A stretch of DNA of 64,000 nucleotides from Vulcanimicrobiota bacterium (GTDB lineage Bacteria; Vulcanimicrobiota; Xenobia; Xenobiales; JADMJV01): the NCBI GenBank assembly GCA_050250895.1, contig JBFWNU010000001.1, positions 3,488,149-3,552,148 on the forward strand. The letters are read 5' to 3'. The notes beneath the pieces were generated by a model. It made no database searches and was not told where the DNA came from. It was given only the letters and a program-made list of their open reading frames with translations. Positions 1 through 29,940 of the stretch are shown in pieces (positions within the stretch are counted from its first letter, which is position 1; every line of letters begins with the position of its first letter). A program made the position numbers and the translations under genes.

Positions 1-672
1 ATAGTCGGCTGGCACGCCCTCGAACTTGCCGGTCAGGTTGTCGCCCTGGCGTTCTAGTTTGAGGTTGCTGGTCTGCTCGAAGCCCTGGGGCAGGATCACC
101 TCGACCTCCAGGGTGCCGAACGAGGCCCAGGCTTTGGCCGGGCTGAGCAAATAGACGAGCTGATGCTCACGATAGACCCGGTCGGTGGGGTGGTAGGCGC
201 CGGGCAGGCATTCATAGCTCACCTCGAGTTTGTGCTGGCCAGGGGTGAGAACAGGTTGAAAGCGCAGGCCGCCCAGCCCGTCTTCATACTCGCTGTTGGT
301 CGTTCCACCGTCGAGAGACGGCACTTTCTCAGGCGGAGCCCAGTCGGGAGGAGCCTCGCTGACCTCGACCTTCTCGGCTTGGATCGGCTGGCCGTCGAGG
401 CTGACCTGGCATTTATCCAGGGCCACGCTCACGAACAGCAACTCGGGGCTCTTCAGGCCGGCAGTATTCTCGAGGTCGTAGACGGCCGTGATCCTGGCCC
501 GGCCGTTGCGCTCGCTCAACGAGGTCAGGTCGAGGGTCAGGCGCTCGTGGCGTACGTGCAGGTCGGCCAGGGCACCCACCGGTTCGCCCACGGCATCCCC
601 GCGTTGCCAGGGGCTGGCCATGTTGGCGCTGGCGGGCAGGACGAGACAAAGCAGAAGGAGTAAGGTTCTCAC
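1..672 (-). CDS. Secreted hypothetical protein (DUF4424-like), runs off the left edge
   Basis: Not in the ORF track. Own translation from GTG 672 gives MRTLLLLLCLVLPASANMASPWQRGDAVGEP..LHVRHERLTLDL..YLLSPAKAWASFGTLEVEV, with an N-terminal signal peptide. Confidence 0.7.
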   Translation of the reverse strand, partial: MRTLLLLLCLVLPASANMASPWQRGDAVGEPVGALADLHVRHERLTLDLTSLSERNGRARITAVYDLENTAGLKSPELLFVSVALDKCQVSLDGQPIQAEKVEVSEAPPDWAPPEKVPSLDGGTTNSEYEDGLGGLRFQPVLTPGQHKLEVSYECLPGAYHPTDRVYREHQLVYLLSPAKAWASFGTLEVEVILPQGFEQTSNLKLERQGDNLTGKFEGVPADY

Positions 673-708
673 CCCGGCGAGTTCGTGGCCGCTCGGGCCT
701 GCGCCTGG

Positions 709-1047
709 CTAAAGCTCGAGCTGGGTGCCGAAAAGGACGTAATAGTTCTCGCTGGCCGCTTGAGCCATTTCAGGGTCCTCCAGGTGCCGGCGGCAGAGTT
801 CGAGGCGTTCCGCCATTCTGGCTGGACCGAAGTGGGTCGACAGCACCCGCAGGTCGTCGAGGTCCTTGGTGCGCCGCGACATCAGCTTGCCGGTGGCCAC
901 GTCGAGCGGATCGACGCAGTGGGCCTCGATGCGGAACAGGCGGGTGCGGTAGTCGGGCGATGGCTCGCAAACCTGCTGCTCGATCGCTTTGGCCAACTCG
1001 TTGGCGTCGAGCCTGGGGATGCGAGTTGTCAGCGTCCATAGGTCCAC
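709..1047 (-). pseudogene. Short or truncated DUF6036-like nucleotidyltransferase (C-terminal part only)
   Basis: Motif DYRTRL..CVDPLDVATGKLMSRRTKDLDDL; only 112 aa, with no N-terminal GG..TxDxD catalytic segment. Confidence 0.45.
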
Positions 1048-1087
1048 TCTGAGGATTTCTCAGGTCAGCCGGCTCGATCCTGGAAGG

Positions 1088-2320
1088 TCAGGCCGAGCCC
1101 GAGGCCGGCCAGTCGCGTTCGAGCACGCAGCCCCGGCGCAAATCGGCCAGGGAATAGTGGGTGCCGCGCCAGGTGGTGCCGTCGTTGACATAGGCGCGCA
1201 GGGTGCCCCACACCAGGGCGGCGCACAGGACCGGGATCATCAAGAGCTGAGTCAGTCCCTCGGCGCCGCTGCCGCCGGCCAGTCGCCGGGCGGCCAGGCC
1301 GTGAGCAGCCGTGGCCAGGGCGAAGGCGAGCAGGCTGGGCAGACTGGGGCCGAGCCAGAGCGGGCTGGCCAGAATCGCAAAGATGGCTAGCGGAAAGATG
1401 GCTTGCCAGGGCTGCCATTCTAGCGCGCACAGGGCGCGCTCGGCGTGGGCCCGCCAGGCCTTGAAGAGGCCCGGCATCCACTCCACCTCCAGGCAGTCGG
1501 TCAAATCGACCAGGGCCTGGTGCACACCGCTGCGGCGCAAGACCATGCCCAGCTTCATGTCGTCGGCCATGTCCATGGCCACCGCGGCGTAGCCTCCTAT
1601 CCGTTCATAATCGCTGCGACGAATCAGGTTGAACGCGCCCACCCCGGCATAGCCGGCGCTGCCGGGGTGGGCAAGCTGCCAGCAGCGAAAGCGGATCAGA
1701 ATCCACATCAGGCTCGAGCTGAGAAAGGCCCGTTCCCAGAACGTGCGGGCCACGATCAAGGGCATTCCGGCCAGGTGGCCCAGGTCGTGGGCCAGCGCGT
1801 GGGCCATTGCCTGGCGCAACACCCCCGGTCCGTGGTGGACATCGCCATCGGTGAAGAGCACCCAGTCACCACTCGCCTGGGCGGCGCCGCGATGGCAGGC
1901 GTGATTCTTCCCCAGCCAGCCCGGGGGAAGGTCGTGGATGTGAACCACCTTGAGACGCGGGTCGGCCGCTGCCAGCCGCTCGAGAATCTCGCCGGTGCCG
2001 TCGTCGGAGCGGTCGTTGACGGCGATCACCTCAAGCGCGGGATAGTCGCTGGCAAGGAGCGAGCGGGTGGCCGATTCGACGGCTACCGCCTCATTGCGCG
2101 AAGGAGCGATCACACTGACTCGGGGCCATTGGGTTGGCTCGGGCCCCTGGGGCCGGGGAGTGCTGCGCACGGCCAGATTGACGAACCAGAGCACCGCCGC
2201 CCAGAGAATGACCGGCAGCCATGGGTAACAGCCAGGTAAACTGCTGTTGCCAAGAGTTGAACCGGTGGCGAGATGCCAGAATCCGTCGACCAGGGTCAGC
2301 CAGGAAGTGATATAAATCAT
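1088..2320 (-). CDS. Family 2 glycosyltransferase, membrane-associated (HpnB/CrtQ-like)
   Basis: VSVIAPSRNE, VNDRSDDGT, PPGWLGKNHAC, LFTDGD, DDMKLG motifs; hydrophobic N- and C-terminal segments. Confidence 0.9.
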   Translation of the reverse strand: MIYITSWLTLVDGFWHLATGSTLGNSSLPGCYPWLPVILWAAVLWFVNLAVRSTPRPQGPEPTQWPRVSVIAPSRNEAVAVESATRSLLASDYPALEVIAVNDRSDDGTGEILERLAAADPRLKVVHIHDLPPGWLGKNHACHRGAAQASGDWVLFTDGDVHHGPGVLRQAMAHALAHDLGHLAGMPLIVARTFWERAFLSSSLMWILIRFRCWQLAHPGSAGYAGVGAFNLIRRSDYERIGGYAAVAMDMADDMKLGMVLRRSGVHQALVDLTDCLEVEWMPGLFKAWRAHAERALCALEWQPWQAIFPLAIFAILASPLWLGPSLPSLLAFALATAAHGLAARRLAGGSGAEGLTQLLMIPVLCAALVWGTLRAYVNDGTTWRGTHYSLADLRRGCVLERDWPASGSA

Positions 2321-2343
2321 TTAGCTCCGTAAACCGTCTGGGA

Positions 2344-3579
2344 TTGACTGAAGACGTGGTTCTTAGAAACCGAGATTTCGCCCTGCTCTGGTGTGGTCAG
2401 CTGGTCTCGCAGCTGGGCAACCAGTTCAACTACATCGCCCTGGCCTGGCTGGTGCTGACCACCACCGGGTCGAGCGTCGCCATGAGCGGCGTGTTTCTGG
2501 CCCAGGTCTTACCCAACGCGCTGTTCGGCTGTTTTGCCGGGGTGGTGGTTGACCGCTGCGACCGTCGCCGGTTGATGCTGTTCACTGACTGGCTGCGGGC
2601 CGGGCTGGTCCTGGCGCTGCCTGGACTGGTGCTGTATGGCGCCTTGCCGCTGGCGGCCATCTATGGGGTAACCTTCCTGGTGTCGAGCTTGAGCCTGCTT
2701 TTCTATGCCAGCGAGAAGTCGATGCTGCCCAACCTGGTCAGCTCCGACGAGCTGACCGAAGCCAACGCTTATTCAGAAATGACGGCTCAGGCAGCCGGCC
2801 TGGTGGGCCCGGTCCTGGCGGGGCTGTTGGTGGCCGTCTTGCCTTCGCCCGTCTATGTGCTTTTTTTGGATGGCGCAAGCTTTGCGGTCTCGGCCCTGAC
2901 TTTGCTGGCCATGCGTTGGCGCGACGCGCGCAGACCCACCGAGCGCCTGCGGGTCAGCCAGTGGCTGAGCGAGGGCCTGGCGGGCATCCGCTACCTGGTG
3001 CGCGGTCGCTTCTTGCGCATCGTTTTTCTCACCGCCACGGCCGTTAATTTTCTGGTCATGCCGTTTGCGGTGGTCTTTCCGGTCTATGCCAGAGAGGTGC
3101 TGCTGGCCGGTGCCCCCGGTTTTGGCTGGCTGATGGGAGGCATCGGAGCCGGTATGCTTCTTGGCTCCCTGGCGGCCGGCTGGCTGGCGCGGCGCCTCGA
3201 GCCGGCCGTGATCGTGTATGCCGGCATGGCTCTGTTGGGAGTCAGCTTCGCCCTGATGGCTCACGTCGATCACCTGGGTCCCGCGATTTTGTTAGCCGCG
3301 GTGGCCGGCTTTGGGGTTTCGCCCGGCAACGCCGTGATCCTGACGATGGTGCAGCGGACCACTCCTGAAGAGATGCAGGGCCGGGTGTTTTCGAGTCTTT
3401 TTGCGGTAGTGGGGATGGCCGCCCCGCTGGGGGTGGGATTGGCCGGTCCCCTGTTGGGGGTGGTGGGACCGGCGACCTTGTTGGGCTGGATCGGCGGGCT
3501 GACTCTTTTGGCGGCCGGGTGGGGTTATCTGCTGTTGGCCGAAGAGCCCATCAGCCTTGCAGGTTGCGAGCCAGAATGA
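2344..3579 (+). CDS. MFS transporter (DHA3/macrolide-efflux-like)
   Basis: RNRDFALLWCGQLVSQLG, GVVVDRCDRRRLM motif A, MQGRVFS; about 12 TM segments. Confidence 0.9.
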   Translation: MTEDVVLRNRDFALLWCGQLVSQLGNQFNYIALAWLVLTTTGSSVAMSGVFLAQVLPNALFGCFAGVVVDRCDRRRLMLFTDWLRAGLVLALPGLVLYGALPLAAIYGVTFLVSSLSLLFYASEKSMLPNLVSSDELTEANAYSEMTAQAAGLVGPVLAGLLVAVLPSPVYVLFLDGASFAVSALTLLAMRWRDARRPTERLRVSQWLSEGLAGIRYLVRGRFLRIVFLTATAVNFLVMPFAVVFPVYAREVLLAGAPGFGWLMGGIGAGMLLGSLAAGWLARRLEPAVIVYAGMALLGVSFALMAHVDHLGPAILLAAVAGFGVSPGNAVILTMVQRTTPEEMQGRVFSSLFAVVGMAAPLGVGLAGPLLGVVGPATLLGWIGGLTLLAAGWGYLLLAEEPISLAGCEPE

Positions 3580-21478: not shown

Positions 21479-22512
21479 CGGCCTGGCTGCTGGCGGCGGC
21501 CGTCGCCCTGGGGGCCGCTCGCAGCGAGCCCGGCTGGCAACAGGTGGTGGCCACCAGCCTGGAGCGCTTTTCGGCCGTCCGGGTCATCCTCTTTGAACTC
21601 GAGCCTGAACTGGTCCATCAGCGGGGTGAACTCGGCTTTGAGCGAGCCCGCTGGCTGCCGCAATCAGCCGGTCTTAGCCCGGAGGGGTGGCTGGTGGCTC
21701 CCATCCTCAACGACGACAAGCCCCTGGGATTGATCGTGGCCGCCGGTGAGGCGGACGACCTCGACGGGCTACGACTGTTTGGCCATCTGGCCGGGGCCAG
21801 CCTGACCAACTTGCGGCTGTTGGACCAGCTGATGCAGTCAGCCAAGCTGGCCACCCTCGGTCAGATGACGGCCGGGGTAGCCCATGAACTCAACAATCCG
21901 CTAGGGGCGATGACCCTGTGGCTGGATACGGCTTCGATGCTGGTCGACCGCAAGCCCGAGAAGGCCGTGGCCCAGATCGAGTCGGCCCTCGAGGCGCTCG
22001 AGCGCTGTCAGCGCATTCTCGACAACGTGCTGCATTTCGCTCGCAAACGGGAAGCTCACAGCACCGAGGAGATCACTCTCGACACCCTGGTAGAGCGGGT
22101 GCTCGAGACCCTGCATCCCAATCTCAAACGGATTCCTCAGACGGTCGAGTTGGGTTCGCGCGCCCGGGTCGAGGGCAACAGTCTCGAGTTGCAGCAGCTG
22201 CTGGTCAACTTGCTGCTCAACGCGCGCGACGCCCTGCTGCCGGTGGAGGGTCCTCGGCTGTGGGTGAGGACGCGCCAGCAGAACGGTCGAGCCCGGGTCG
22301 AGATCGAAGACAACGGCCCCGGAGTGGGAGCGGCCGACGCGGAGCGGATCTTTGCCCCGTTCTTCACCACCAAGCCTCCGGGCAGTGGCACCGGGCTCGG
22401 CCTCTCCTTGAGTCGCGAGATAGCCCGCAGCCACCAGGGCTATCTGACCGTGACCGGCGGCGCCCAGGGCGGGGCCCTGTTCGTACTCGACCTACCCGTG
22501 GCCGAAGTTTGA
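21475..22512 (+). CDS. Histidine kinase with GAF-like input
   Basis: GVAHELNNPL, NLLLNA, DNGPG, FFTTK, GTGLGL. Confidence 0.9.
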   Translation: MTAWLLAAAVALGAARSEPGWQQVVATSLERFSAVRVILFELEPELVHQRGELGFERARWLPQSAGLSPEGWLVAPILNDDKPLGLIVAAGEADDLDGLRLFGHLAGASLTNLRLLDQLMQSAKLATLGQMTAGVAHELNNPLGAMTLWLDTASMLVDRKPEKAVAQIESALEALERCQRILDNVLHFARKREAHSTEEITLDTLVERVLETLHPNLKRIPQTVELGSRARVEGNSLELQQLLVNLLLNARDALLPVEGPRLWVRTRQQNGRARVEIEDNGPGVGAADAERIFAPFFTTKPPGSGTGLGLSLSREIARSHQGYLTVTGGAQGGALFVLDLPVAEV

Positions 22513-23025
22513 ATCGGCTAGATAGTGGTCGAGGTGATGGGCCCGGTCCTCGCAGCCCATGAGCACGCCCCGCAGCAGGGTCTCGGAGCCGAAGTCGCCC
22601 AACTCGTTGGTGGCCCGAATGGATTGGCGCAACATCATAGCCATACGCTGCTCGGCTCGCAGGTCGTGCACCAGCATGGCCCGCAACGGATAGTTCTGCT
22701 CGGGCTCGTGGTCGAGATAAGAGAACTCTAGCAGCGCGGCCGGACTCGAGGCGGGCATGCCGCCGAGCATGGTGACGCGCTCGGCCACTGCATCGAGAGC
22801 CTTGAGGACGGCGGTGTACTGTTCTTCGAAGAAGTGATGCAGATCGCGGAAGACGTGCCCCTCGACCATCCAGTGATGCTTCTGGTATTGGTGAAACAGT
22901 ACGCTCAGCGAAGCCTGGTGGCGGCGTAAGTCGGTGGCCACCGCCGAGGCGGTCTCGCTCTCGAGTCCGATCGGATTGCCGGTGTTCTCTTCGGATATGC
23001 CTGGTTGAGAAGAAAGTGTGTCCAC
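22492..23025 (-). CDS. dps: Dps / ferritin-like DNA-protection protein
   Basis: HWMVEG..FRDLH..FEEQY..LDAVAER..LGG ferroxidase signature. Confidence 0.88.
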   Translation of the reverse strand: MDTLSSQPGISEENTGNPIGLESETASAVATDLRRHQASLSVLFHQYQKHHWMVEGHVFRDLHHFFEEQYTAVLKALDAVAERVTMLGGMPASSPAALLEFSYLDHEPEQNYPLRAMLVHDLRAEQRMAMMLRQSIRATNELGDFGSETLLRGVLMGCEDRAHHLDHYLADSNFGHG

Positions 23026-23090
23026 GTTCGATCCTTTCCGGAGCCCGAGCCCCGGACGCCACCTTTGGCAAGCATGCGCCGGCCTCCTTT

Positions 23091-25508
23091 CTAGCCGGCT
23101 GCATCGGCCGCTCCGGGCAGCGGCAAGCGTAGGTAGAAGACGGCTCCTTGGCCCGGTTCGGATTCGGCCGTCAGGGTGCCCCCGTGGCGGGCCACGATCT
23201 GGTGGCTGACCGACAGACCCAGGCCGGTGCCCTCGCCCACCTCTTTGGTGGTATAGAACGGCTCGAAGATGCGTTCCAACACCTCGGGTGTCATACCCGG
23301 CCCGCGGTCGCGAACGCTGATTTGAGCGTTTTGCCGGTCGTGACTGGTGGCCACGGTGACCTGGCGCGACTCGGCCGGCAAGGTCTTGCCGGCGTCGATG
23401 GCGTTGAGCACCAGATTGACCAGCACTTGCTGAAGGTCTTTGGGGCGGGCCATCACGGTGGGCACCGGGGCCAGCTCGGTGGTGATGGTGAAGCCGTGCT
23501 GGTCGACATGATGATGAAGGAAATCGATGGTGTCGGTGACCACCTCGACCAGGTCTACCGGCTCGTCGTCGGCGCTCTTGCGCGAATAAAACAACAGCTT
23601 GTTGATGATGTGCTGGGCCCGTTCGGTGGCCTTTAGAGCGCGCTCCAGACGCTGGTTGGCTTTGTCGGGGTTGCCTTTGGACAGCTGCGTTTGGGCGCTG
23701 GCGATCGAGACCGAGATGGCTCCCAACGGGTTGTTGAGCTCGTGGGATACACCCGCTGCCAGTTGACCAACGGCTGTCAGTTTGCTGGTCTGGATGAGCT
23801 GAGCCTGTGACTCCTCCAACTGGCGCCGAGCCTCGACCACATCCTGGAAATGGCCGGCATTGGCCAGGGCCACGGCGGCTTGATAAGCGATGGCCGAGAG
23901 CAGGTTCTCGTGCTCTTTGTTAAAACTACGGGCCGGCCCGGCCGCCAGGAGCAGGGCGCCGGTGACTTCTTGCTCGGTGCGCAGCGGCACGACGATCAGG
24001 CTTTTCATTCCCTCGATCAGGGTGGCCCCTTCGGCGTCGAGGTGGGGCTGCCCGCTGGTGAGCACCTTGCGCACCAGCACGGCGTGGGCCAGTTCGGGAC
24101 CCGGTTTGCGGTGGTCTCGCTCGGCCCAGGCAAACTGGCCGCGCGTCGTGATCAAAGCGCCCACATCGTGAGGAACCACCCGTTCCAGCAGCTCTTTGAC
24201 CGACTTCTCCAGCACCGGGATCTCCAGGCTTGAAGCCAGCTCGCGGGCGCCTTCCATCAGCAGCGCCAGCAGTTGCACACGTTCTTGCAGTTGGTAGCGG
24301 GCGGCCGTGCTCTCTTGAAAGGCCTGTTGGCGGGCTTGGCTGCGGCGGGAAGCTCCGATGGCCAGGGTGGCCTTCTCGGCTACCAGCGCCAGGCGCGCCC
24401 CCTCTTCCTTGTTGAACGGTTTTTTATCGCGTCCCACATAGAGCACTCCCTCGCGCCCCAGGGGAACGGCCAGCCAGTGGGCGTCGCGGCTGTCGGCGGG
24501 CTCGGCCAGCGTGCGGGCGGTGGCCACCCGCCCGCTCTCGAAGGCCTGACGCACCCCCGGTTCGGCCTGACCCGACGGCTCGAGCCGGCCTTCCTGGGCT
24601 AGATAGATGGCGGCCTGGTCGCAGGGCACCAGAGCCCGGATGGTCGCCAGGGCCCCTTTCACCACCTGCTCGATGGTCGGGTCTGACGCCAGTTGCTGGG
24701 CGAAACCCTCTAATAAAGCCTCGCGCTCGGCCGCGGACTGCAGCTGCACCCGGGCCCGAGAGGCCTCGGTGCGGGCCTCTTCGAGGTGGCTCTGCGACTC
24801 GGCCAGCTTTTTGCGCGAGGCTTCGGCCTCGAGGGCCTCGACCCGAAAGATGGCGTAGTCGGCGGCCTTACAAACGCCCCACAGCAACGGCAAGGCCCAC
24901 AGCATCTGCCACTTGCTGGACTGCATCAGCGCCAGGATGGTCAGACCACCGAAGATCGGCCCCAGCCACAGCGACTGCAAGGTCAATAGCACGCCAACCC
25001 AGGTGAGGTATTGATTGCGTTCGAGCCGCTCGGCCATCAAGCGACGCGGCCAGTACTGCCGGGCCAAAGCCATGACCACTCCGGCCGCCAGGGCTTTCGG
25101 CCACGGGTCGTCGAGACCGGCCCGCGCCAGAGCGGCCATGGCCGCGATGCCAAGAACCACCGGCATCAGTTCGAGCCAGGCCTCGAACCACTTGCAGTCA
25201 CGCTGGGGCGCCACCAGCACCGTGCGCAGCAAGAGGCCTCCCAGGGCCAGCAGGACGCCCACCGCCGGGCCCAGACCGGGCGTAGCCGCAGCCGCCAGAT
25301 AAACCGCCGGAGCTGGAGAAAAGACTCCGAAGCAGGGCATGAAGACGGCCGCATTTTCGAGCAAGAGGGCGGATACGCCAAGAAACAGGAGAGACTCCGA
25401 GTCGAGGCTGCGGCTGGGCGCTCCCATGGCCACCGTGGCTATCATCACCAACAGCAGGCTCAAAGCGAGCCAGCTGCTAGCCCGGGCGATGGCAGCCGGA
25501 GGCGTCAT
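23091..25508 (-). CDS. Multi-TM, double-GAF histidine kinase
   Basis: About 7 TM helices; two GAF-like segments (LAVPL, IVVPL); GVSHELNNPL; GTGLGL. Confidence 0.9.
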   Translation of the reverse strand: MTPPAAIARASSWLALSLLLVMIATVAMGAPSRSLDSESLLFLGVSALLLENAAVFMPCFGVFSPAPAVYLAAAATPGLGPAVGVLLALGGLLLRTVLVAPQRDCKWFEAWLELMPVVLGIAAMAALARAGLDDPWPKALAAGVVMALARQYWPRRLMAERLERNQYLTWVGVLLTLQSLWLGPIFGGLTILALMQSSKWQMLWALPLLWGVCKAADYAIFRVEALEAEASRKKLAESQSHLEEARTEASRARVQLQSAAEREALLEGFAQQLASDPTIEQVVKGALATIRALVPCDQAAIYLAQEGRLEPSGQAEPGVRQAFESGRVATARTLAEPADSRDAHWLAVPLGREGVLYVGRDKKPFNKEEGARLALVAEKATLAIGASRRSQARQQAFQESTAARYQLQERVQLLALLMEGARELASSLEIPVLEKSVKELLERVVPHDVGALITTRGQFAWAERDHRKPGPELAHAVLVRKVLTSGQPHLDAEGATLIEGMKSLIVVPLRTEQEVTGALLLAAGPARSFNKEHENLLSAIAYQAAVALANAGHFQDVVEARRQLEESQAQLIQTSKLTAVGQLAAGVSHELNNPLGAISVSIASAQTQLSKGNPDKANQRLERALKATERAQHIINKLLFYSRKSADDEPVDLVEVVTDTIDFLHHHVDQHGFTITTELAPVPTVMARPKDLQQVLVNLVLNAIDAGKTLPAESRQVTVATSHDRQNAQISVRDRGPGMTPEVLERIFEPFYTTKEVGEGTGLGLSVSHQIVARHGGTLTAESEPGQGAVFYLRLPLPGAADAAG

Positions 25509-25534
25509 TGGTGGCAGTTCGCCACCAGCCCCGG

Positions 25535-26902
25535 CTAACCTGGCAGGCGTAAACGCGAAGGAATCTGCTCGAGCCGCCGCCAGTCCTGCCAGCTCTCGCG
25601 AGCGCGAATCAGCTCGACCCCGTGGCCTCCTACCAGGACCACCGCCGGCCGGGTCTGAATGAACTGCCACGATTGGGAGAAGTTGTAAGCCCCCACCCGC
25701 TTGACGACCAGTGGGTCGCCCCGCCGGACCGGCGGCAGGGGCACCCCGTGGCGCAGGATGTCGATCTGCATGCAGAGCGAGCCGAAGACCGAGGCCTCTT
25801 CCAGCATGCCACAACCTTCGAAGGCCGGCACGATGTCGTGGCGATACCAGTTGGCCGTATAGAGCAGGTTGACGCCCGCGTCGACGACCACACCGCGGCT
25901 GCCGTCGCAAAGACGTCGGTTCGAAACCACCGAGGTACCCAGATGCATGGCCTCGTCAACCAGAAACCGACCCGGCTCGAGGAATAGGGTCGGCAGTTTT
26001 TCAAAGCCCGCCGCCAACAACCGGGGGCCGATGGCCCGGGCATAGTCCTCGGCCGCTGGACAGGCGTATTCGGCCGGCAAGGGTTCGCCATGGAGCGAAT
26101 TGCCGGCCGCAAAACCGCCTCCCAGGTCGAGATCTTCGAGTTCGACCTGGTGCTGTTGGCGCAAGAGCCGGGCTAAGCCTAGAACTCGCTCGAGGGCCAT
26201 CCCATAGCGGTTGGGGTCGAGCACGTAGGTGCCGATGTGGCAGTGCAGGCCACGCAAGCGAAGATAGGGCGAGCCCACGATCCGGCGGGCGGCCTCCAGA
26301 GCCTGGCCGCTCTCGAGGTTGAGGCCAAAGCGGTCCCAGGGGACAGCGTCCAGGCGCACGTTCACGCGCAGGCCGACCGGCAGCCGTTGGCCGACTTGAC
26401 GGGCCACTTCTTCAGCCAGAGCGATCTCTTCGAGCGAATCGAGGTTGACCCGGGCCCCCTCCAGGAAAGCGCGCCTGAGCTCGTCGGCCCGTTTGAGCGG
26501 GCCGTTGAAGAGGATGTGGGCGCCCTTCACCCCGTTGGCCCGGGCCAGGGCGTACTCCGTGCCCGAGACCACTTCGGCCCAGGCGCCTTCGCTGTGCAGC
26601 ACCGAACAAAGGGCGCCCAGGTAATTGGTCTTGTAGGAAAAGGCGATCACCGTGCGCGGATAGTGCAGCTCGAAGGCCCGGGCCAGCCTGCGATACTGCT
26701 GGCGCAGGGTGGATTCCGAGACCATCCACAAAGGCGAGCCGAACTCGTCCATCATGCCCCTGATTTCATGACCGTCGAGATGAGTGAAGGGGGCGGCGGT
26801 CCGCATGGGACCGTAGGGGTTCATCCGACCCACGGCGTGGCGGATGATGGCCGGCCTTTGATAGGGCCGGCGCTGGTCTACCTGAACATCAGACTGCAGC
26901 AC
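25535..26902 (-). CDS. PLP-dependent decarboxylase, fold III (diaminopimelate/ornithine decarboxylase-like), with N-terminal extension
   Basis: FSYKTN (PLP Lys), EVVSGTE, FNGP.K, RFG, HCHIGT, LDLGGG, EPGR, GSLCMQID, GAYN. Confidence 0.9.
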   Translation of the reverse strand: MLQSDVQVDQRRPYQRPAIIRHAVGRMNPYGPMRTAAPFTHLDGHEIRGMMDEFGSPLWMVSESTLRQQYRRLARAFELHYPRTVIAFSYKTNYLGALCSVLHSEGAWAEVVSGTEYALARANGVKGAHILFNGPLKRADELRRAFLEGARVNLDSLEEIALAEEVARQVGQRLPVGLRVNVRLDAVPWDRFGLNLESGQALEAARRIVGSPYLRLRGLHCHIGTYVLDPNRYGMALERVLGLARLLRQQHQVELEDLDLGGGFAAGNSLHGEPLPAEYACPAAEDYARAIGPRLLAAGFEKLPTLFLEPGRFLVDEAMHLGTSVVSNRRLCDGSRGVVVDAGVNLLYTANWYRHDIVPAFEGCGMLEEASVFGSLCMQIDILRHGVPLPPVRRGDPLVVKRVGAYNFSQSWQFIQTRPAVVLVGGHGVELIRARESWQDWRRLEQIPSRLRLPG

Positions 26903-27935
26903 GGATCAGTTCTCCTTTCATGGCTAAACTCTCGAGGTCGCTCACATCGCCCACCACATCCAGAGCGTGGCGCACGAAGAACTTTCCGGTCTGATAGTCG
27001 AGGCGGGGCGGCGGCTCGTTTCCCAGCAACTCTTGCAGCGCCAGGGCCGGCAGGTTGAGGCCGGCCCCGGCCGACAGATAGATCCAGGACGGAAAGCGAG
27101 GGTTGATTTCGAGCAGATAGAAGCGGTCGCTGGCGCTATCGAGCAGAAACTCGAACTCGACGGGCCCCACCCAGGCCAACTTCTCCATCAGCCGCCGAGC
27201 CTTGCCCAACAGTCCCTGGTGGCTTACCGTGATGGCAGCCCAGGCGGTGCCTTTGGCCGTGATTCTCAGCTTGCGCATGGCCACCCAACCCAGCGGTAGG
27301 CCCGCTCGTGAGCCGACGGCCGCCACGTCGTATTCCTCGCCGCAAAGATGTTCTTGCACCAGCAAAGGCAGCCCCCACTCGCGCCGGGTTTGTTCGAACC
27401 AGACGGCCGCCTCGCCCGGGTGGTGGGCCACCCGGGCCCCGTGAAAGACGCCCTTCACCACCACCGGCCAGCCCCAGGCGTGACCCATTTCGACCACCTC
27501 TTGAGGGCTGTGGACCACCCGGGTGCGAGGGTGCAGAAAGCCATGCTCGCGGCAGAACTCGGCCAGATGCAGCTTGGATCGCAGCTTGAGCACCCGGGGG
27601 CTGGGCAAAAGCGTGCGCACCCCCATCTCGGCGAGCCGGCCGGCCAGGCGGGCATAGCCCATCAGCTCCGAGTCGAGGTTGGGCACCAGGGCTTGGAAGG
27701 GGCGTCGCTCCAGGATGTGGCCGAGGCGCTCGAGCAGAACCTGCTCGCCTTCAAACGGATAGGGCACTAGATAGGTTTCATCGAGCAGACCGGGGCTATG
27801 CACGCAGGTGTCCAGGGCGTCATAGGCCAGGCCCACGAAACGATGCTCCCCGGCCTCGCGCAGGCAACGCACCACGGCCATGCCCGGAGCGGGGTTATCG
27901 GTGGCGTTGAGTCCGGTGACGGCTACGGTCGTCAT
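26889..27935 (-). CDS. ATP-grasp carboxylate-amine ligase
   Basis: VTGLNATDNPAPG, PVVVKG, LVQE..GEEYDV, EFEF, LLEINPRFP. Confidence 0.9.
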   Translation of the reverse strand: MTTVAVTGLNATDNPAPGMAVVRCLREAGEHRFVGLAYDALDTCVHSPGLLDETYLVPYPFEGEQVLLERLGHILERRPFQALVPNLDSELMGYARLAGRLAEMGVRTLLPSPRVLKLRSKLHLAEFCREHGFLHPRTRVVHSPQEVVEMGHAWGWPVVVKGVFHGARVAHHPGEAAVWFEQTRREWGLPLLVQEHLCGEEYDVAAVGSRAGLPLGWVAMRKLRITAKGTAWAAITVSHQGLLGKARRLMEKLAWVGPVEFEFLLDSASDRFYLLEINPRFPSWIYLSAGAGLNLPALALQELLGNEPPPRLDYQTGKFFVRHALDVVGDVSDLESLAMKGELIRAAV

Positions 27936-28201
27936 TGTAGGGCCGCCAATCCGAGCTGGCCAGCCTGCAACAGAAACTCATACACGTCCACCTGAGCCTG
28001 TTCGGGCTCCACTTCAAACTCGCCGGCCAGCCTCACCGCCATTTCGCCTGGCTCAAGCCCTTCCCGCAGGCGCTGCAACAGAAAGGCTGCCGACTCGTTG
28101 AGCCCAAAGGTCTGCCCTGAGGTGGGACAAAAGACGAAGCTGCCGGGCTCGGCCGAAGCCGCGAAAGGGCTGGGACGGTAGGGGATGGGACTGGTCTTCA
28201 T
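27932..28201 (-). CDS. PqqD-family protein / stand-alone RiPP recognition element (RRE)
   Basis: 89 aa; FVFCPTSGQTFGLNESAAFLLQRL..LAGEFEVEPEQAQVDVYEFLLQ..LG pattern. Confidence 0.85.
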   Translation of the reverse strand: MKTSPIPYRPSPFAASAEPGSFVFCPTSGQTFGLNESAAFLLQRLREGLEPGEMAVRLAGEFEVEPEQAQVDVYEFLLQAGQLGLAALQ

Positions 28202-28614
28202 TGGAGTTCTCCGATCTCACCGCTGCGGTAGAGCAGCATGTCGTCCATGTGGTAGCCGTAGCGGGGGCAGAACTGGCAGCCCTCGAGCTGGCAATCCTTT
28301 TTGAGTACTTTGCGGCCCCACAGGGCGACTTCGTACGTGCCGCCGTGATAGGCCGAGGTCGAGAAAGTCTCGCGAAAAGACCCGCTCTTGAGCGAGCGCA
28401 CCAGGTGGCGTCCGTCGCGCACGGCATCGCGGGCGTTGACGGGATACATGGACACGCCCACATAGGCTCGCCGGGGAGTTTGCCCGGTGATCTCGAGCAA
28501 GCGGCCGGCCGAGACCACCAGCGTCGGGTCGGGGGAGGGGCTGGCACTGCTACTCAAAGCGGCGCTCAGCATCAGCGCCAAGAGGCTGGCCGCGAACAAA
28601 GTCTTGATCGTCAT
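28198..28614 (-). CDS. Probable separately initiated secreted protein with Cx4Cx2C motif (nested in-frame start)
   Basis: AAGGAG SD before ATG 28614; signal peptide MTIKTLFAASLLALMLSAALS; DCQLEGCQFCPRYGYH. Confidence 0.6.
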   Translation of the reverse strand: MTIKTLFAASLLALMLSAALSSSASPSPDPTLVVSAGRLLEITGQTPRRAYVGVSMYPVNARDAVRDGRHLVRSLKSGSFRETFSTSAYHGGTYEVALWGRKVLKKDCQLEGCQFCPRYGYHMDDMLLYRSGEIGELQ

Positions 28615-29940
28615 GACACTCCTTGGTGGGGCTTGACTCACCAGGCTTCCCTGGCGGGGGACAGGGCCGGCCGGGCCGACCTGGTTCTGGAAGGGACGAA
28701 AGTGAGCGGCCACGGTATGGCCACCGAGCACAGGTTGGCTCTGCAGTTGAAGATGCAGATGCGGTTCGCAAGAATAGCCCGAGTTGCCGCACTCACCGAG
28801 CAGTTGACCGCGACCAACCCGCTGCCCCGGACGAACCACCACCGAGCCCTGGCGAAAATGGCTCAACTCGCTATAGTAGCTGCCGTGGCGCAGGATGACG
28901 TAGTTTCCCCAGTTGTGCTCGGTCTGGGGTTGACCCGGAGGGTTGTCGGGCAGGCTGTTCTCGACCGCCACCACCACTCCGCCCGCCGGTGCGAAGACGG
29001 CGCGCCCCCAGCAGTAGTAGTCTTCCAGTCGCTCGCCTTGTTCGCGAAAGCTGCGGCCCTGGCCGTCGAGCACGATGAAGTCCCAGGCGTGACGCCAGGG
29101 TCCCTGGTGAGTCCAATCGCCGTCGGCGCCCTGACTGACGTACCACCAGCCCCGAAAGGGAAGGCTCAGACAGGGCTTGCGCAGTCGCCAGGCCTGGGCC
29201 ACCAGCACCACGAACACGAAAGGCGCCACCAGCGTGCGCAGGCCGAAAAGCTCGAGGCTGGCCCGGGTCAGCAGAAGGGTCAGGCCGCTGCCGAGTGCGG
29301 CCGGCGCCAGTCCTTCCCAGAGGCTAGGCGCAAAGACCGCGCCCAGAGCAACAGCCGTCAAGGCGGCGTTGAAAGCCACCACCGGCGAGTCGGTGAAGAG
29401 CAGTCCTAGTCCGCCTCCCACAGCGGCCAGCAGGGCCTGATAAGGGCGCTGCCAGAGCAGGGCGGCCCCAACCAAAAGCCCGGCCAGATCGTGGGGCGTG
29501 AAGACCACTGCCCCCAACCAGCCCAGCAGCGAAGGGTGCCCCTCGACGGCCGGCCCGCTCACCAGGGCCCAGCCGCACAGCAGGAAAGGCAGACTCAGCA
29601 CCGGCAACTCGCCCAGGGCCAGGCTCAGCTGGTCGACCAGCCAGGCGCTGACCAGAGCGCAGCCGACCGCCACCGGCAGGCCCAGCCAGAGCGGCCAGCT
29701 CAGCCACCCCACCAACAAGCCGGTCAGGGCTCCGTTGCAACCATAGAGCCCGTCTTCGACCCCCCGCCGGCCTCGCATTCCCCACAGGGTCGCCACCACT
29801 GCCCCCAGCAGGCCGAACAGTCCCAGGGCGGGGTCGAGCAGGCTGGCCAGCAACACCAGCCCACCGCTCACCGGCTTCGAGCAAAAGAAGATTTGTCCGT
29901 AGCCGGCGAGAACCGAGGGCAGAAGCTTACGTATAGGCAA
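28198..29940 (-). CDS. Urea-transporter-like membrane domain fused to M23 peptidase, in frame with a downstream secreted domain
   Basis: GYGQIFF, GLYGCNGAL, LSLPF, FNAAL (urea transporter family); THQG..AWDF, GNYVIL, LSH, GNSG.S.EPHLH (M23); TTG start with GGAGG. Confidence 0.85.
   Translation of the reverse strand: MPIRKLLPSVLAGYGQIFFCSKPVSGGLVLLASLLDPALGLFGLLGAVVATLWGMRGRRGVEDGLYGCNGALTGLLVGWLSWPLWLGLPVAVGCALVSAWLVDQLSLALGELPVLSLPFLLCGWALVSGPAVEGHPSLLGWLGAVVFTPHDLAGLLVGAALLWQRPYQALLAAVGGGLGLLFTDSPVVAFNAALTAVALGAVFAPSLWEGLAPAALGSGLTLLLTRASLELFGLRTLVAPFVFVVLVAQAWRLRKPCLSLPFRGWWYVSQGADGDWTHQGPWRHAWDFIVLDGQGRSFREQGERLEDYYCWGRAVFAPAGGVVVAVENSLPDNPPGQPQTEHNWGNYVILRHGSYYSELSHFRQGSVVVRPGQRVGRGQLLGECGNSGYSCEPHLHLQLQSQPVLGGHTVAAHFRPFQNQVGPAGPVPRQGSLVSQAPPRSVMTIKTLFAASLLALMLSAALSSSASPSPDPTLVVSAGRLLEITGQTPRRAYVGVSMYPVNARDAVRDGRHLVRSLKSGSFRETFSTSAYHGGTYEVALWGRKVLKKDCQLEGCQFCPRYGYHMDDMLLYRSGEIGELQ

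Follow-up and report, generated by a model that had tools for sequence, protein, structure and literature searches.

A leader-like motif at the N terminus of a PLP-dependent decarboxylase encoded with a PqqD-type protein suggests docking of a RiPP recognition element on an enzyme

The window analyzed here, a 64,000-nucleotide stretch of a Vulcanimicrobiota bacterium genome (GenBank assembly GCA_050250895.1, contig JBFWNU010000001.1, positions 3,488,149 to 3,552,148), carries a cassette of genes on the minus strand, and all positions below are those of the window. A type III PLP-dependent decarboxylase of 455 aa is encoded at 25535..26902 and matches PF02784 at 102 bits and PF00278 at 37 bits, above the respective cut-offs of 23.4 and 23. 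It is not the housekeeping LysA, as it scores 231.1 against the TIGR01048 lysA equivalog model, below the cut-off of 297.9, and the only other paralog in the genome is an aspartokinase-LysA fusion. An ATP-grasp ligase of 348 aa (26889..27935) was identified by a match to PF15632 ATPgrasp_Ter (1.8e-11), with 2PN1 as the best PDB hit (3e-20); only this Pfam family and CPSase-like matches were seen, and the protein has no functional name in the Atlas clusters. A PqqD-family protein of 89 aa (27932..28201) matches PF05402 at 46.2 bits against a cut-off of 23.4. A small secreted-looking protein (28198..28614), with a signal-peptide-like start (MTIKTLF...) and a conserved Cys-rich C terminus, matches no Pfam family, is in frame here with the upstream open reading frame (ORF) with no stop between them, and is present only in a subset of cassettes. 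The ORF at 28615..29940, whose start codon is uncertain, encodes a urea-transporter-like membrane domain (PF03253; 5e-24) fused to an M23 peptidase domain (PF01551; 1e-13), hereafter UT/M23.

Translation of the decarboxylase ORF gives VLQSDVQVDQRRPYQRPAIIRHAVGRMNPYGPMRT..., in which the first codon is a GTG that would be read as fMet. An in-frame TGA lies two codons upstream, and the next possible starts (GTG at codon 24 and ATG at codon 27) lie downstream of the motif described below, so the GTG at 26902 is the only start that includes it. An AGGAG Shine-Dalgarno-like site (26912..26916) lies 9 nt upstream of the GTG, and the ATP-grasp ORF, with its stop at 26889, overlaps the decarboxylase ORF by 14 nt. 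Residues 14 to 19 (26846..26863) read YQRPAI, and the core ...DEFGSPL begins at residue 52. Profiles of solved decarboxylases begin to align only at family-profile positions 27 to 34; the family-specific part is thus about 26 profile positions, or roughly 35 to 40 residues in this protein, in agreement with the length given in the preliminary description, and residues 1 to 40 (26783..26902) are treated here as the N-terminal extension. The observation in that description, that a YxxPxI motif resembling those of RiPP leaders is built into the N terminus of the decarboxylase, is therefore confirmed.

In a single sequence the motif is weak evidence, as [YW]xxPx[ILVM] starts within the first 30 residues of 56 of 4574 ORFs of at least 300 aa in this genome (1.2%). 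To examine its conservation, loci containing the 5' end of a homologous decarboxylase were collected from many phyla, using the best 80 per scan rather than all cassette loci. It was found that [Y/W/F]xxPx[I/L/V/M] is present in 173 of 173 such loci (Y in 138, W in 31, and F in 4), with an ATG typically lying 4 to 6 residues before the aromatic residue, and Pro17 is invariant in 62 aligned sequences. The motif lies 41 (149 loci), 42 (12 loci), or 43 (12 loci) residues before the GSP core. A second block follows, with the family consensus GxMNKFG, which in the window has the diverged form G25-R-M-N-P-Y-G31 (26810..26830). Among 144 unique N termini with the 41-residue spacing, G11, N14, and G17 were each present in 135, K15 in 132, and F16 in 123, while G25, N28, and G31 of the window protein are conserved in at least 90% of the sequences in alignment A2. 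Neither this block, which is as conserved as the first, nor the fixed spacing was noticed in the preliminary description, and neither is explained by docking of a RiPP recognition element (RRE) alone. A wider search for proteins carrying the motif gave 197 hits, of which 120 were listed; all 120 carry the motif, 113 carry PF02784, and the remaining 7 are short fragments without a precomputed domain. No fusions to other protein families were found among them.

The gene neighborhood is similarly conserved. PqqD was found in 94 of 96 loci, the two misses being cut at the locus edge, and homologs of UT/M23 were present in 75 of the 96, usually downstream of the decarboxylase. Across all loci, 149 of 173 have a PqqD hit. 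Of the 24 without one, 23 have under 1.2 kb of upstream sequence; the other, locus L152, at first appeared to be a motif-bearing gene without PqqD, but it has two genes inserted between the ligase and the decarboxylase and ends inside the ligase, with the expected PqqD site pushed off the locus, and is uninformative. Among 401 genomes of the phylum, the same 16 carry the ligase and this decarboxylase, and no intermediate decarboxylase without the cassette appeared at E <= 1e-45.

The PqqD protein is of the discrete lasso-B1 type. The best solved relatives of its family profile are TbiB1 (5.5e-15) and TfuB1 (1.4e-9), both crystallized with YxxPxL leaders, although the protein scores only 36 against the NCBIfam lasso_PqqD_Strm exception model, below its cut-off of 70. 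The AlphaFold2 (AF2) model (pLDDT 79.5) has the winged helix-turn-helix fold of solved RREs, with strands at residues 22 to 25 and 30 to 33 and helices at 36 to 46, 51 to 62, and 66 to 82; a third strand was not assigned by DSSP in the free model. The top Foldseek hits of the model are 6JX3_B (TM 0.78/0.81, rmsd 2.2) and 5V1V_A (TM 0.79/0.80). In LppB, N33 and D70 were shown by mutagenesis to bind the Pro kink and the Tyr hydroxyl, respectively, of YxxP leaders (PMC13381572), and these residues map onto N35 and D72 of the PqqD in the window. N35 is invariant in 50 of 50 sequences, and D72 is at least 90% conserved.

To identify whether the motif and the RRE vary together, 144 unique PqqD/motif pairs were compared. 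The Asp is kept in 117 of 117 Tyr-type pairs, whereas the Trp-type pairs comprise 14 with Asp, 9 without, and 1 gap, and none of the 3 Phe-type pairs keep it. The Asp is thus lost only where Tyr is replaced, but the association runs one way only, and it rests on just three independent events. The three Asp-loss clades all lie inside non-Tyr clades, which hold 18% of the tree length, giving a rough figure of 0.006 (0.182 cubed) that assumes that events fall in proportion to branch length on a FastTree topology. On an ATP-grasp tree, the Tyr/non-Tyr state and the Asp/non-Asp state each change only 3 times, and with only 3 independent pairs the sign test is not significant (median p 1).

Alternative client peptides were also sought. 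No other conserved ORF of at least 30 aa was found in the cassette, and no conserved small ORF of at least 8 aa was found between the ligase and the decarboxylase or upstream of pqqD. The gap between the ligase stop and the motif is under 100 nt in 140 of 156 loci, and small motif-bearing ORFs within 1 kb upstream of pqqD are equally frequent on both strands (52 against 46 in 140 loci) and are not conserved. A profile of the 40 N-terminal residues searched against proteins of 22 to 70 aa gave 3 hits among 58 candidates, all of which run on into decarboxylase core sequence or look frameshifted and so were rejected as a precursor family. These searches did not extend to trans-encoded peptides or to the region downstream of UT/M23, and precursors of 21 to 22 aa have been overlooked before in an RRE-containing cluster (PMC13622209), so a very short or trans-encoded peptide is not excluded.

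In the AF2 monomer of the decarboxylase (mean pLDDT 90), residues 1 to 39 are coil, with pLDDT values of 63, 62, 41, and 69 per 10-residue block of the extension, as expected of a docking peptide, although a monomer model cannot show an arm that packs on the other subunit of the obligate dimer. A predicted complex of PqqD with residues 1 to 48 gave an ipSAE of 0.33, against 0.00 to 0.01 for three controls with unrelated partners. The mark was reached by 58 of 80 solved complexes and by 2 of 110 mismatched pairs, but at 0.60 or under it was reached by only 7 of those 80 and by both mismatches that passed, and by this calibration the score is weak support. The runs agreed in at least 86% of contacts, with a partner pLDDT of at least 51, but no interface was given, and as like complexes are solved, the pass may come from the model's memory of them.

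Our preferred reading, to which we assign a probability of about 0.5, is that the first roughly 40 residues of this decarboxylase are a conserved, flexible, leader-like peptide fused to a PLP enzyme inferred to be functional, and that the first block is the docking site for the PqqD of the cassette. In this view, the RRE would bind the block as RREs bind leaders, as an added strand in the beta3/alpha3 cleft, with Asn35 holding the Pro kink and Asp72 the Tyr hydroxyl. The most likely purpose would be to tether the decarboxylase to the ATP-grasp ligase so that the two act as one complex on a small amino-acid conjugate, with the ligase making an amide, the FslC-like decarboxylase removing the alpha-carboxylate, and the UT/M23 membrane protein handling the product. 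The motif with its conservation and spacing, the composition of the cassette, the type of the RRE and its candidate binding residues, and the lack of a separate precursor within the searches above are established by the analysis, whereas binding itself, any contact of PqqD with the ligase, the tethering, and the chemistry are inferred.

The interpretation offered in the preliminary description is only partly supported. It held that YxxPxL is the RRE-binding motif of lasso-peptide leaders, which agrees with the literature, and that the enzyme itself is the missing precursor, on which the RRE may dock either to scaffold a decarboxylase-ligase complex or to direct post-translational modification of the enzyme. 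Two of the three outcomes named beforehand as fatal to this proposal, loss of the motif in cluster homologs and a true start downstream of it, were not observed. However, evidence that the RRE binds the peptide is limited to the weak complex prediction and the covariation described above, and the data do not distinguish scaffolding from modification.

Other explanations must be weighed against this reading. It is possible, though we consider it unlikely, that the extension is an intrinsic part of this decarboxylase subfamily, such as a dimer-swapped arm or an active-site lid, that its likeness to a leader is coincidental, and that PqqD binds an undetected tiny or trans-encoded peptide or only the ATP-grasp. 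The fixed spacing to the core and the strong conservation of the second block fit a structural or catalytic role, and the motif occurs only on these decarboxylases among the listed hits. The pattern also matches an invariant WGxPxL inside the ATP-grasp (W187, G188, and P190), showing that such strings also arise inside a conserved, presumably folded region. Conversely, AF2 does not pack the segment on the monomer, the RRE is of exactly the subtype that reads this motif and keeps both key residues, the Asp is lost only where Tyr is lost, no alternative peptide was found in 140 to 156 loci, and the unrelated controls scored lower in the (weak) complex prediction. That the motif is a chance string in a miscalled 5' extension, as the GTG start, the ATG codons at residues 27, 33, 50, and 51, and the single-sequence chance of about 1.2% might suggest, is refuted by its conservation at the protein level in 173 of 173 loci, most of which have an ATG just upstream of the motif, and the AGGAG before the GTG also argues against it.

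A further reading, also considered unlikely, is that the N terminus of the enzyme is a true substrate. The RRE would bind the first block and present GxMNKFG to the ATP-grasp for covalent modification, after which the UT/M23 protein may cut and export a conserved peptide-derived product, or the modified arm may become a protein-derived cofactor or regulatory switch of the enzyme; if true, this would be a widespread, cross-phylum pathway in which an enzyme carries its own leader and core. The layout matches that of a RiPP precursor, in which a recognition sequence is followed at a fixed distance by a conserved segment, and a peptidase fused to a membrane domain belongs to the cassette in 75 of 96 loci. 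The two conserved glycines flank the second block, and M23 enzymes prefer glycine-rich sites; highly conserved cores are also typical of cofactor-type RiPPs. However, no nucleophile or carboxylate in the extension is universal. Glu at +1 is present in 115 of 144 N termini and Lys at +15 in 132 of 144, the window protein has Gln and Pro at these two sites, and its near relatives have Q, G, A, or P in place of the Lys. A Glu(+1)-Lys(+15) lactam as a universal modification was rejected, as the two residues do not co-occur in all lineages. Consuming a 455-aa enzyme for each product molecule would be costly, and the invariance of K91, H222, G261-263, E309, C377, and Y406 in 62 sequences, residues assigned catalytic roles by analogy with DAPDC/ODC, points to a working decarboxylase. 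Modification or cleavage of the extension is hypothetical.

Comparisons with characterized systems revealed both similarities and differences. The PqqD resembles the lasso-peptide B1 proteins of TbiB1-TbiA (5V1U/5V1V) and TfuB1/FusB1-FusA (6JX3) in sequence, in predicted fold (TM about 0.8), and in its Asn and Asp residues, and the published recognition motif, [Y/W]xxPx[L/V/I/F/A], equals the first block. However, the conserved neighbors in 96 loci are only the ATP-grasp, the decarboxylase, and UT/M23; no B2 leader protease, C macrolactam synthetase, or short precursor is among them, as judged from these neighbors rather than from B2 and C profiles. The partner enzyme is an ATP-grasp, and the motif, which carries the recognition sequence of a RiPP leader, heads a 455-aa enzyme rather than a short precursor. 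In linear polyphosphorylated peptide (LPP) precursors, read by LppB, a YxxPxVLxHQ motif sits at the N terminus of proteins of up to 200 aa (PMC13381572) and resembles the YERPxLVRHQ seen in many members of the decarboxylase family, a likeness that counts in favor of the substrate reading. LPP clusters, however, encode an HprK-like kinase, an NTP transferase, a signal peptidase, and an MsbA-like exporter, and their precursors have variable C termini and are not enzymes.

The closest solved relative of the catalytic body is FslC, the N-citrylornithine decarboxylase of rhizoferrin synthesis (7KH2; 6e-97, profile positions 27 to 433), which by its PDB name acts on an amide-conjugated amino acid, fitting an order of ligase first and then decarboxylase. 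FslC has no counterpart of the N-terminal blocks, its partner is an NIS synthetase rather than an ATP-grasp with PqqD, and the window protein scores 182 against the NCBIfam FslC model, far below the cut-off of 500. BtrK of butirosin synthesis, a solved DAPDC-like L-glutamyl-[BtrI acyl-carrier protein] decarboxylase, was hit at 2.3e-45, and the BtrI/BtrJ/BtrK triad has the same make-up of a small partner protein, an ATP-grasp, and this type of decarboxylase. The small protein here is an RRE and not an ACP, and as the PqqD C termini are not conserved, a carrier role, including a LysW-like one, is unlikely; the link would instead be noncovalent docking on the enzyme. In PQQ synthesis, a discrete PqqD bridges a peptide (PqqA) and an enzyme (PqqE), but PqqD structures are weaker matches (3G2B and 5SXY, at E values of 0.016 to 0.12 by sequence and ranks 7 and 8 by fold), and no radical SAM enzyme or PqqA-like peptide is present here.

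Searches of a limited literature collection, without supplements, found no description of this cassette or of an RRE docking on the terminus of an enzyme, although Supplementary Fig. 17 of PMC13381572 and the SSN data of PMC12710340 may already list these PqqDs. The recognition system is a known one, and what differs is that the motif belongs to an enzyme. RREs are treated as the hallmark of RiPP pathways, and genome miners look for a short precursor next to them, such that an RRE without one is scored as a false positive or an unsolved cluster. If the cassette works as proposed, the RRE/leader recognition pair has been reused as a general protein-protein docking device, or to mature an enzyme, which would explain one large class of precursor-less PqqD genes and give a portable tag-and-receptor pair for tethering enzymes. 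Of this class, at least 541 confirmed hits were identified in one-genome-per-species contigs and at least 564 in metagenome contigs, and the record titles name orthologs in cultivable genera such as Chitinophaga, Chryseobacterium, Ignavibacterium, and Melioribacter. The uncharacterized four-gene pathway is spread patchily over many phyla, and within this phylum it was found in 8 of 116 genera among the 401 genomes searched.

The ORF at 25535..26902 on the minus strand translates to a 455-aa protein that begins VLQSDVQVDQRRPYQRPAIIRHAVGRMNPYGPMRT when the GTG start is read as Met, and this is exactly the string given in the preliminary description, whose observation therefore held. An in-frame stop sits two codons upstream of the GTG, while the next possible starts (codons 24 and 27) lie downstream of the motif. 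An AGGAG is located 9 nt before the GTG, and the ORF overlaps the stop of the upstream gene by 14 nt. The protein is a type III PLP decarboxylase, matching PF02784 at 102 bits and PF00278 at 37 bits; however, it falls below the LysA equivalog cut-off (231 against 297.9) and far below the FslC model cut-off. The only other type III decarboxylase found in this genome with this query (contig C7, 284460-285527; 26% identity) is fused to an aspartokinase-like N-terminal region and is probably the housekeeping LysA.

Upstream on the same strand lie an ATP-grasp at 26889..27935 (PF15632), an 89-aa PqqD at 27932..28201 (PF05402, 46 bits) and a long ORF at 28198..29940, which joins a urea-transporter-like (UT) domain, an M23 peptidase domain and, in frame, a small secreted-looking protein. 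The latter, at 28198..28614 (-), is 138 aa in length, starts with MTIKTLF, has a Cys-rich C-terminus with a CxWCKxNGYHMEG-like motif in relatives and belongs to no Pfam family. In a subset of cassettes it is a separate gene just upstream of pqqD, whereas here no stop separates it from the UT/M23 ORF. Downstream, the decarboxylase is directly followed by a GAF-HisKA-HATPase histidine kinase at 23091..25910 (-), the listed TTG start of which overlaps the decarboxylase, so that the true start is probably further in, and then by a 246-aa ORF at 22364..23104 (-) with no Pfam match. Neither of these two genes is part of the conserved cassette elsewhere.

In a single sequence the motif is hardly more than chance, as [YW]xxPx[ILVM] begins within the first 30 residues of 56 of the 4574 long ORFs in this genome (1.2%). 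To examine whether it is conserved, 401 genomes of the phylum were searched, and the ATP-grasp was found in 16; in all 15 other loci a decarboxylase follows it, with tblastn alignments starting at query residues 8-14. A scan of one-genome-per-species contigs gave at least 541 confirmed relatives of the ligase, of which 80 were kept, and a metagenome scan with Trp-type decarboxylases gave at least 564 confirmed relatives, of which 80 were also kept. Of the 176 loci thus collected (designated L001 to L176), 173 contain the 5' end of the decarboxylase, and all 173 carry [Y/W/F]xxPx[I/L/V/M/F/A] (Y in 138, W in 31 and F in 4), which settles the question. The motif lies 41 (149 loci), 42 (12 loci) or 43 (12 loci) residues before the GSP core. 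In 87 unique pairs from the genome sets, the first residue is Y in 79 and W in 8, Pro is present in 87 of 87 and position +5 is I, L, V or M in 87 of 87. In most loci an ATG lies about 5 residues before the aromatic residue, and a miscalled start is excluded. A second block, GxMNKFG, is just as conserved, with G11, N14 and G17 each present in 135 of 144 sequences, K15 in 132 and F16 in 123; the copy in the window reads GRMNPYG. Many family members, including those at loci L040, L053, L068, L093 and L094, read YERPxLVRHQ at the positions corresponding to residues 14-23 of the window's protein. This matches the published LPP leader consensus YxxPxVLxHQ beyond the YxxP core and hints at common descent of the extension and true leaders.

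All-against-all clustering of the ORFs in 96 loci identified only four conserved genes: pqqD in 94 loci, the ATP-grasp in 95, the decarboxylase in 82 as complete ORFs (with tblastn hits in 93) and UT/M23 in 75. An HMM built from the PqqDs found one in 94 of the 96 loci, the two misses being cut at the locus edge. Over all loci, 24 motif-bearing genes lack a PqqD hit; 23 of these have less than 1.2 kb of upstream sequence, while in the remaining one, metagenome locus L152, two unrelated genes (213 aa and 397 aa; L152 positions 631-3000) are inserted between the ATP-grasp and the decarboxylase and the locus ends inside the ligase. The motif and the downstream UT/M23 gene of L152 are intact. The ligase and this decarboxylase are carried by the same 16 of 401 genomes, with nothing intermediate at E <= 1e-45.

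No other client peptide was found among the loci and proteins searched. No other conserved ORF of at least 30 aa exists in the clustered loci. The gap between the ligase stop and the motif is under 100 nt in 140 of 156 loci, and the larger gaps hold nothing shared. Within 1 kb upstream of pqqD in 140 loci, small ORFs with the motif are as common on the wrong strand (46) as on the right one (52) and share neither position nor sequence. It should be noted that in the fosfazinomycin cluster a YxxP precursor of 21-22 aa had been overlooked for years (PMC13622209). A profile of the extension identified no family of short peptides, giving three hits, all of which look like truncated decarboxylase calls. 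Among longer proteins it identified only decarboxylases; of the 120 listed, 113 carry PF02784 and 7 are fragments, and all 120 carry the motif. Within the ATP-grasp at 26889..27935 (-), the string WGLPLL (residues 187-192) also fits the [YW]xxPx[ILVM] expression, and W187 and P190 are invariant in the aligned ligases (L192 is not among the listed invariant columns); judged from sequence alone, it is taken to be part of the fold rather than a second docking site.

The best solved relatives of the PqqD family profile are TbiB1 (5V1U/5V1V, 5.5e-15) and TfuB1 (6JX3, 1.4e-9), followed by the two RREs of PMC13381572, while PqqD proper scores only 0.016-0.12. An AF2 model of the window's protein (pLDDT 79.5) has 6JX3_B (TM 0.78/0.81, rmsd 2.2) and 5V1V_A (TM 0.79/0.80) among its top Foldseek hits. 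YxxP is the lasso recognition sequence, and many PqqD-like RRE groups read W/Y/LxxP/L/I (PMC12710340), with discrete lasso RREs recognizing [Y/W]xxPx[L/V/I/F/A] (PMC13381572). In LppB, Asn33 holds the kinked backbone at the Pro and Asp70 bonds the Tyr hydroxyl, both confirmed by mutation, whereas the WxxP-reading PbaB1 has Gly and Gln at those positions (PMC13381572). In HMMER alignments the spacing of 37 residues fixes the mapping, such that LppB N33 and D70 correspond to N35 and D72 of the window's PqqD. N35 is invariant in 50 PqqDs and D72 is at least 90% conserved.

To determine whether the motif and the Asp covary, 144 unique PqqD/motif pairs were compared. All 117 Tyr-type pairs keep the Asp, the Trp-type pairs show 14 Asp, 5 Cys, 2 Gly, 1 Ser, 1 Asn and 1 gap, and the three Phe-type pairs show Tyr, Tyr and Asn. 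This is what one expects if the Asp is held in place by the Tyr hydroxyl; however, the evidence is thin, as on an ATP-grasp tree of 143 rows each trait changes only 3 times, leaving only 3 independent pairs and a sign test that is not significant. The three Asp-loss clades all sit inside non-Tyr clades, which hold 18% of the tree length, giving a rough 0.006 if the losses fell at random.

The decarboxylase model, built from a 62-sequence alignment, is confident (mean pLDDT 90.3), but residues 1-39 are predicted as coil, with block means of 63, 62, 41 and 69. The closest solved structure, FslC (7KH2, 6e-97), aligns only from family-profile position 27; thus, no solved structure covers the motif. 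A complex prediction pairing the PqqD alignment with residues 1-48 of the decarboxylase scored an ipSAE of 0.33 (runs of 0.32-0.34), with controls at 0.00, 0.00 and 0.01. The mark was reached by 58 of 80 solved complexes and by 2 of 110 mismatched pairs, but at 0.60 or under it was reached by only 7 of those 80 and by both mismatches that passed, so the score is rated as weak support. The runs agree in at least 86% of contacts and partner pLDDT is at least 51, although similar complexes are solved and the pass may come from the model's memory of them.

From these data we propose that the RRE binds block 1, the leader-like motif, of the enzyme's own N-terminus (a probability of about 0.6-0.7 for binding as such), and that the most likely purpose is to tether the decarboxylase to the ATP-grasp for a two-step conversion of a small amino-acid conjugate (about 0.5 for the whole statement). 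The motif with its conservation and spacing, the make-up of the cassette, the RRE type with its conserved residues and the lack of a separate precursor among the loci searched were shown, whereas binding, tethering and the chemistry are inferred. The preliminary description had read the YxxP-type motif as a pseudo-leader on which the RRE may dock, either to scaffold a decarboxylase-ligase complex or to direct modification of the enzyme, and this interpretation is partly supported. Support for the chemistry is indirect: the closest characterized relative acts on an amide-linked ornithine, BtrK, a more distant solved relative, acts on a carrier-bound glutamate, and the ligase belongs to an unnamed PF15632 group, with PylC-like N-terminal domains in more distant Atlas clusters.

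Two alternatives, each considered unlikely, remain. RRE-guided modification of block 2 (GxMNKFG), with M23 as a possible peptidase, is favored by the precursor-like layout but weakened by the lack of any universal reactive residue, the window itself having Gln and Pro where most family members have Glu and Lys. An intrinsic arm or lid of the enzyme is favored by the fixed spacing and block 2 but weakened by the RRE subtype match and the Tyr/Asp pattern. Full-text searches of the literature found no description of this cassette or of an RRE that docks on an enzyme's terminus, and partner-dependent ATP-grasp RiPP enzymes were reported only in 2026 (PMC13097080). The recognition pair is known; building the recognition sequence into a full-size enzyme is not.

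The window's genome holds 18 PqqD-family matches at E <= 0.01, of which 14 are above the Pfam cut-off, one of them only when its neighbours in the frame are counted. Two lie 11 kb and 72 kb upstream of the window's start on the same contig, and the organism is therefore rich in RRE-bearing clusters. In Bacteroidota-labelled loci (L048, L049, L065, L074, L076, L084 and L091), the gene just upstream of pqqD ends with an AraC-type HTH C-terminus (MGYSSVQYLSNQFKQ...), suggesting a dedicated regulator.
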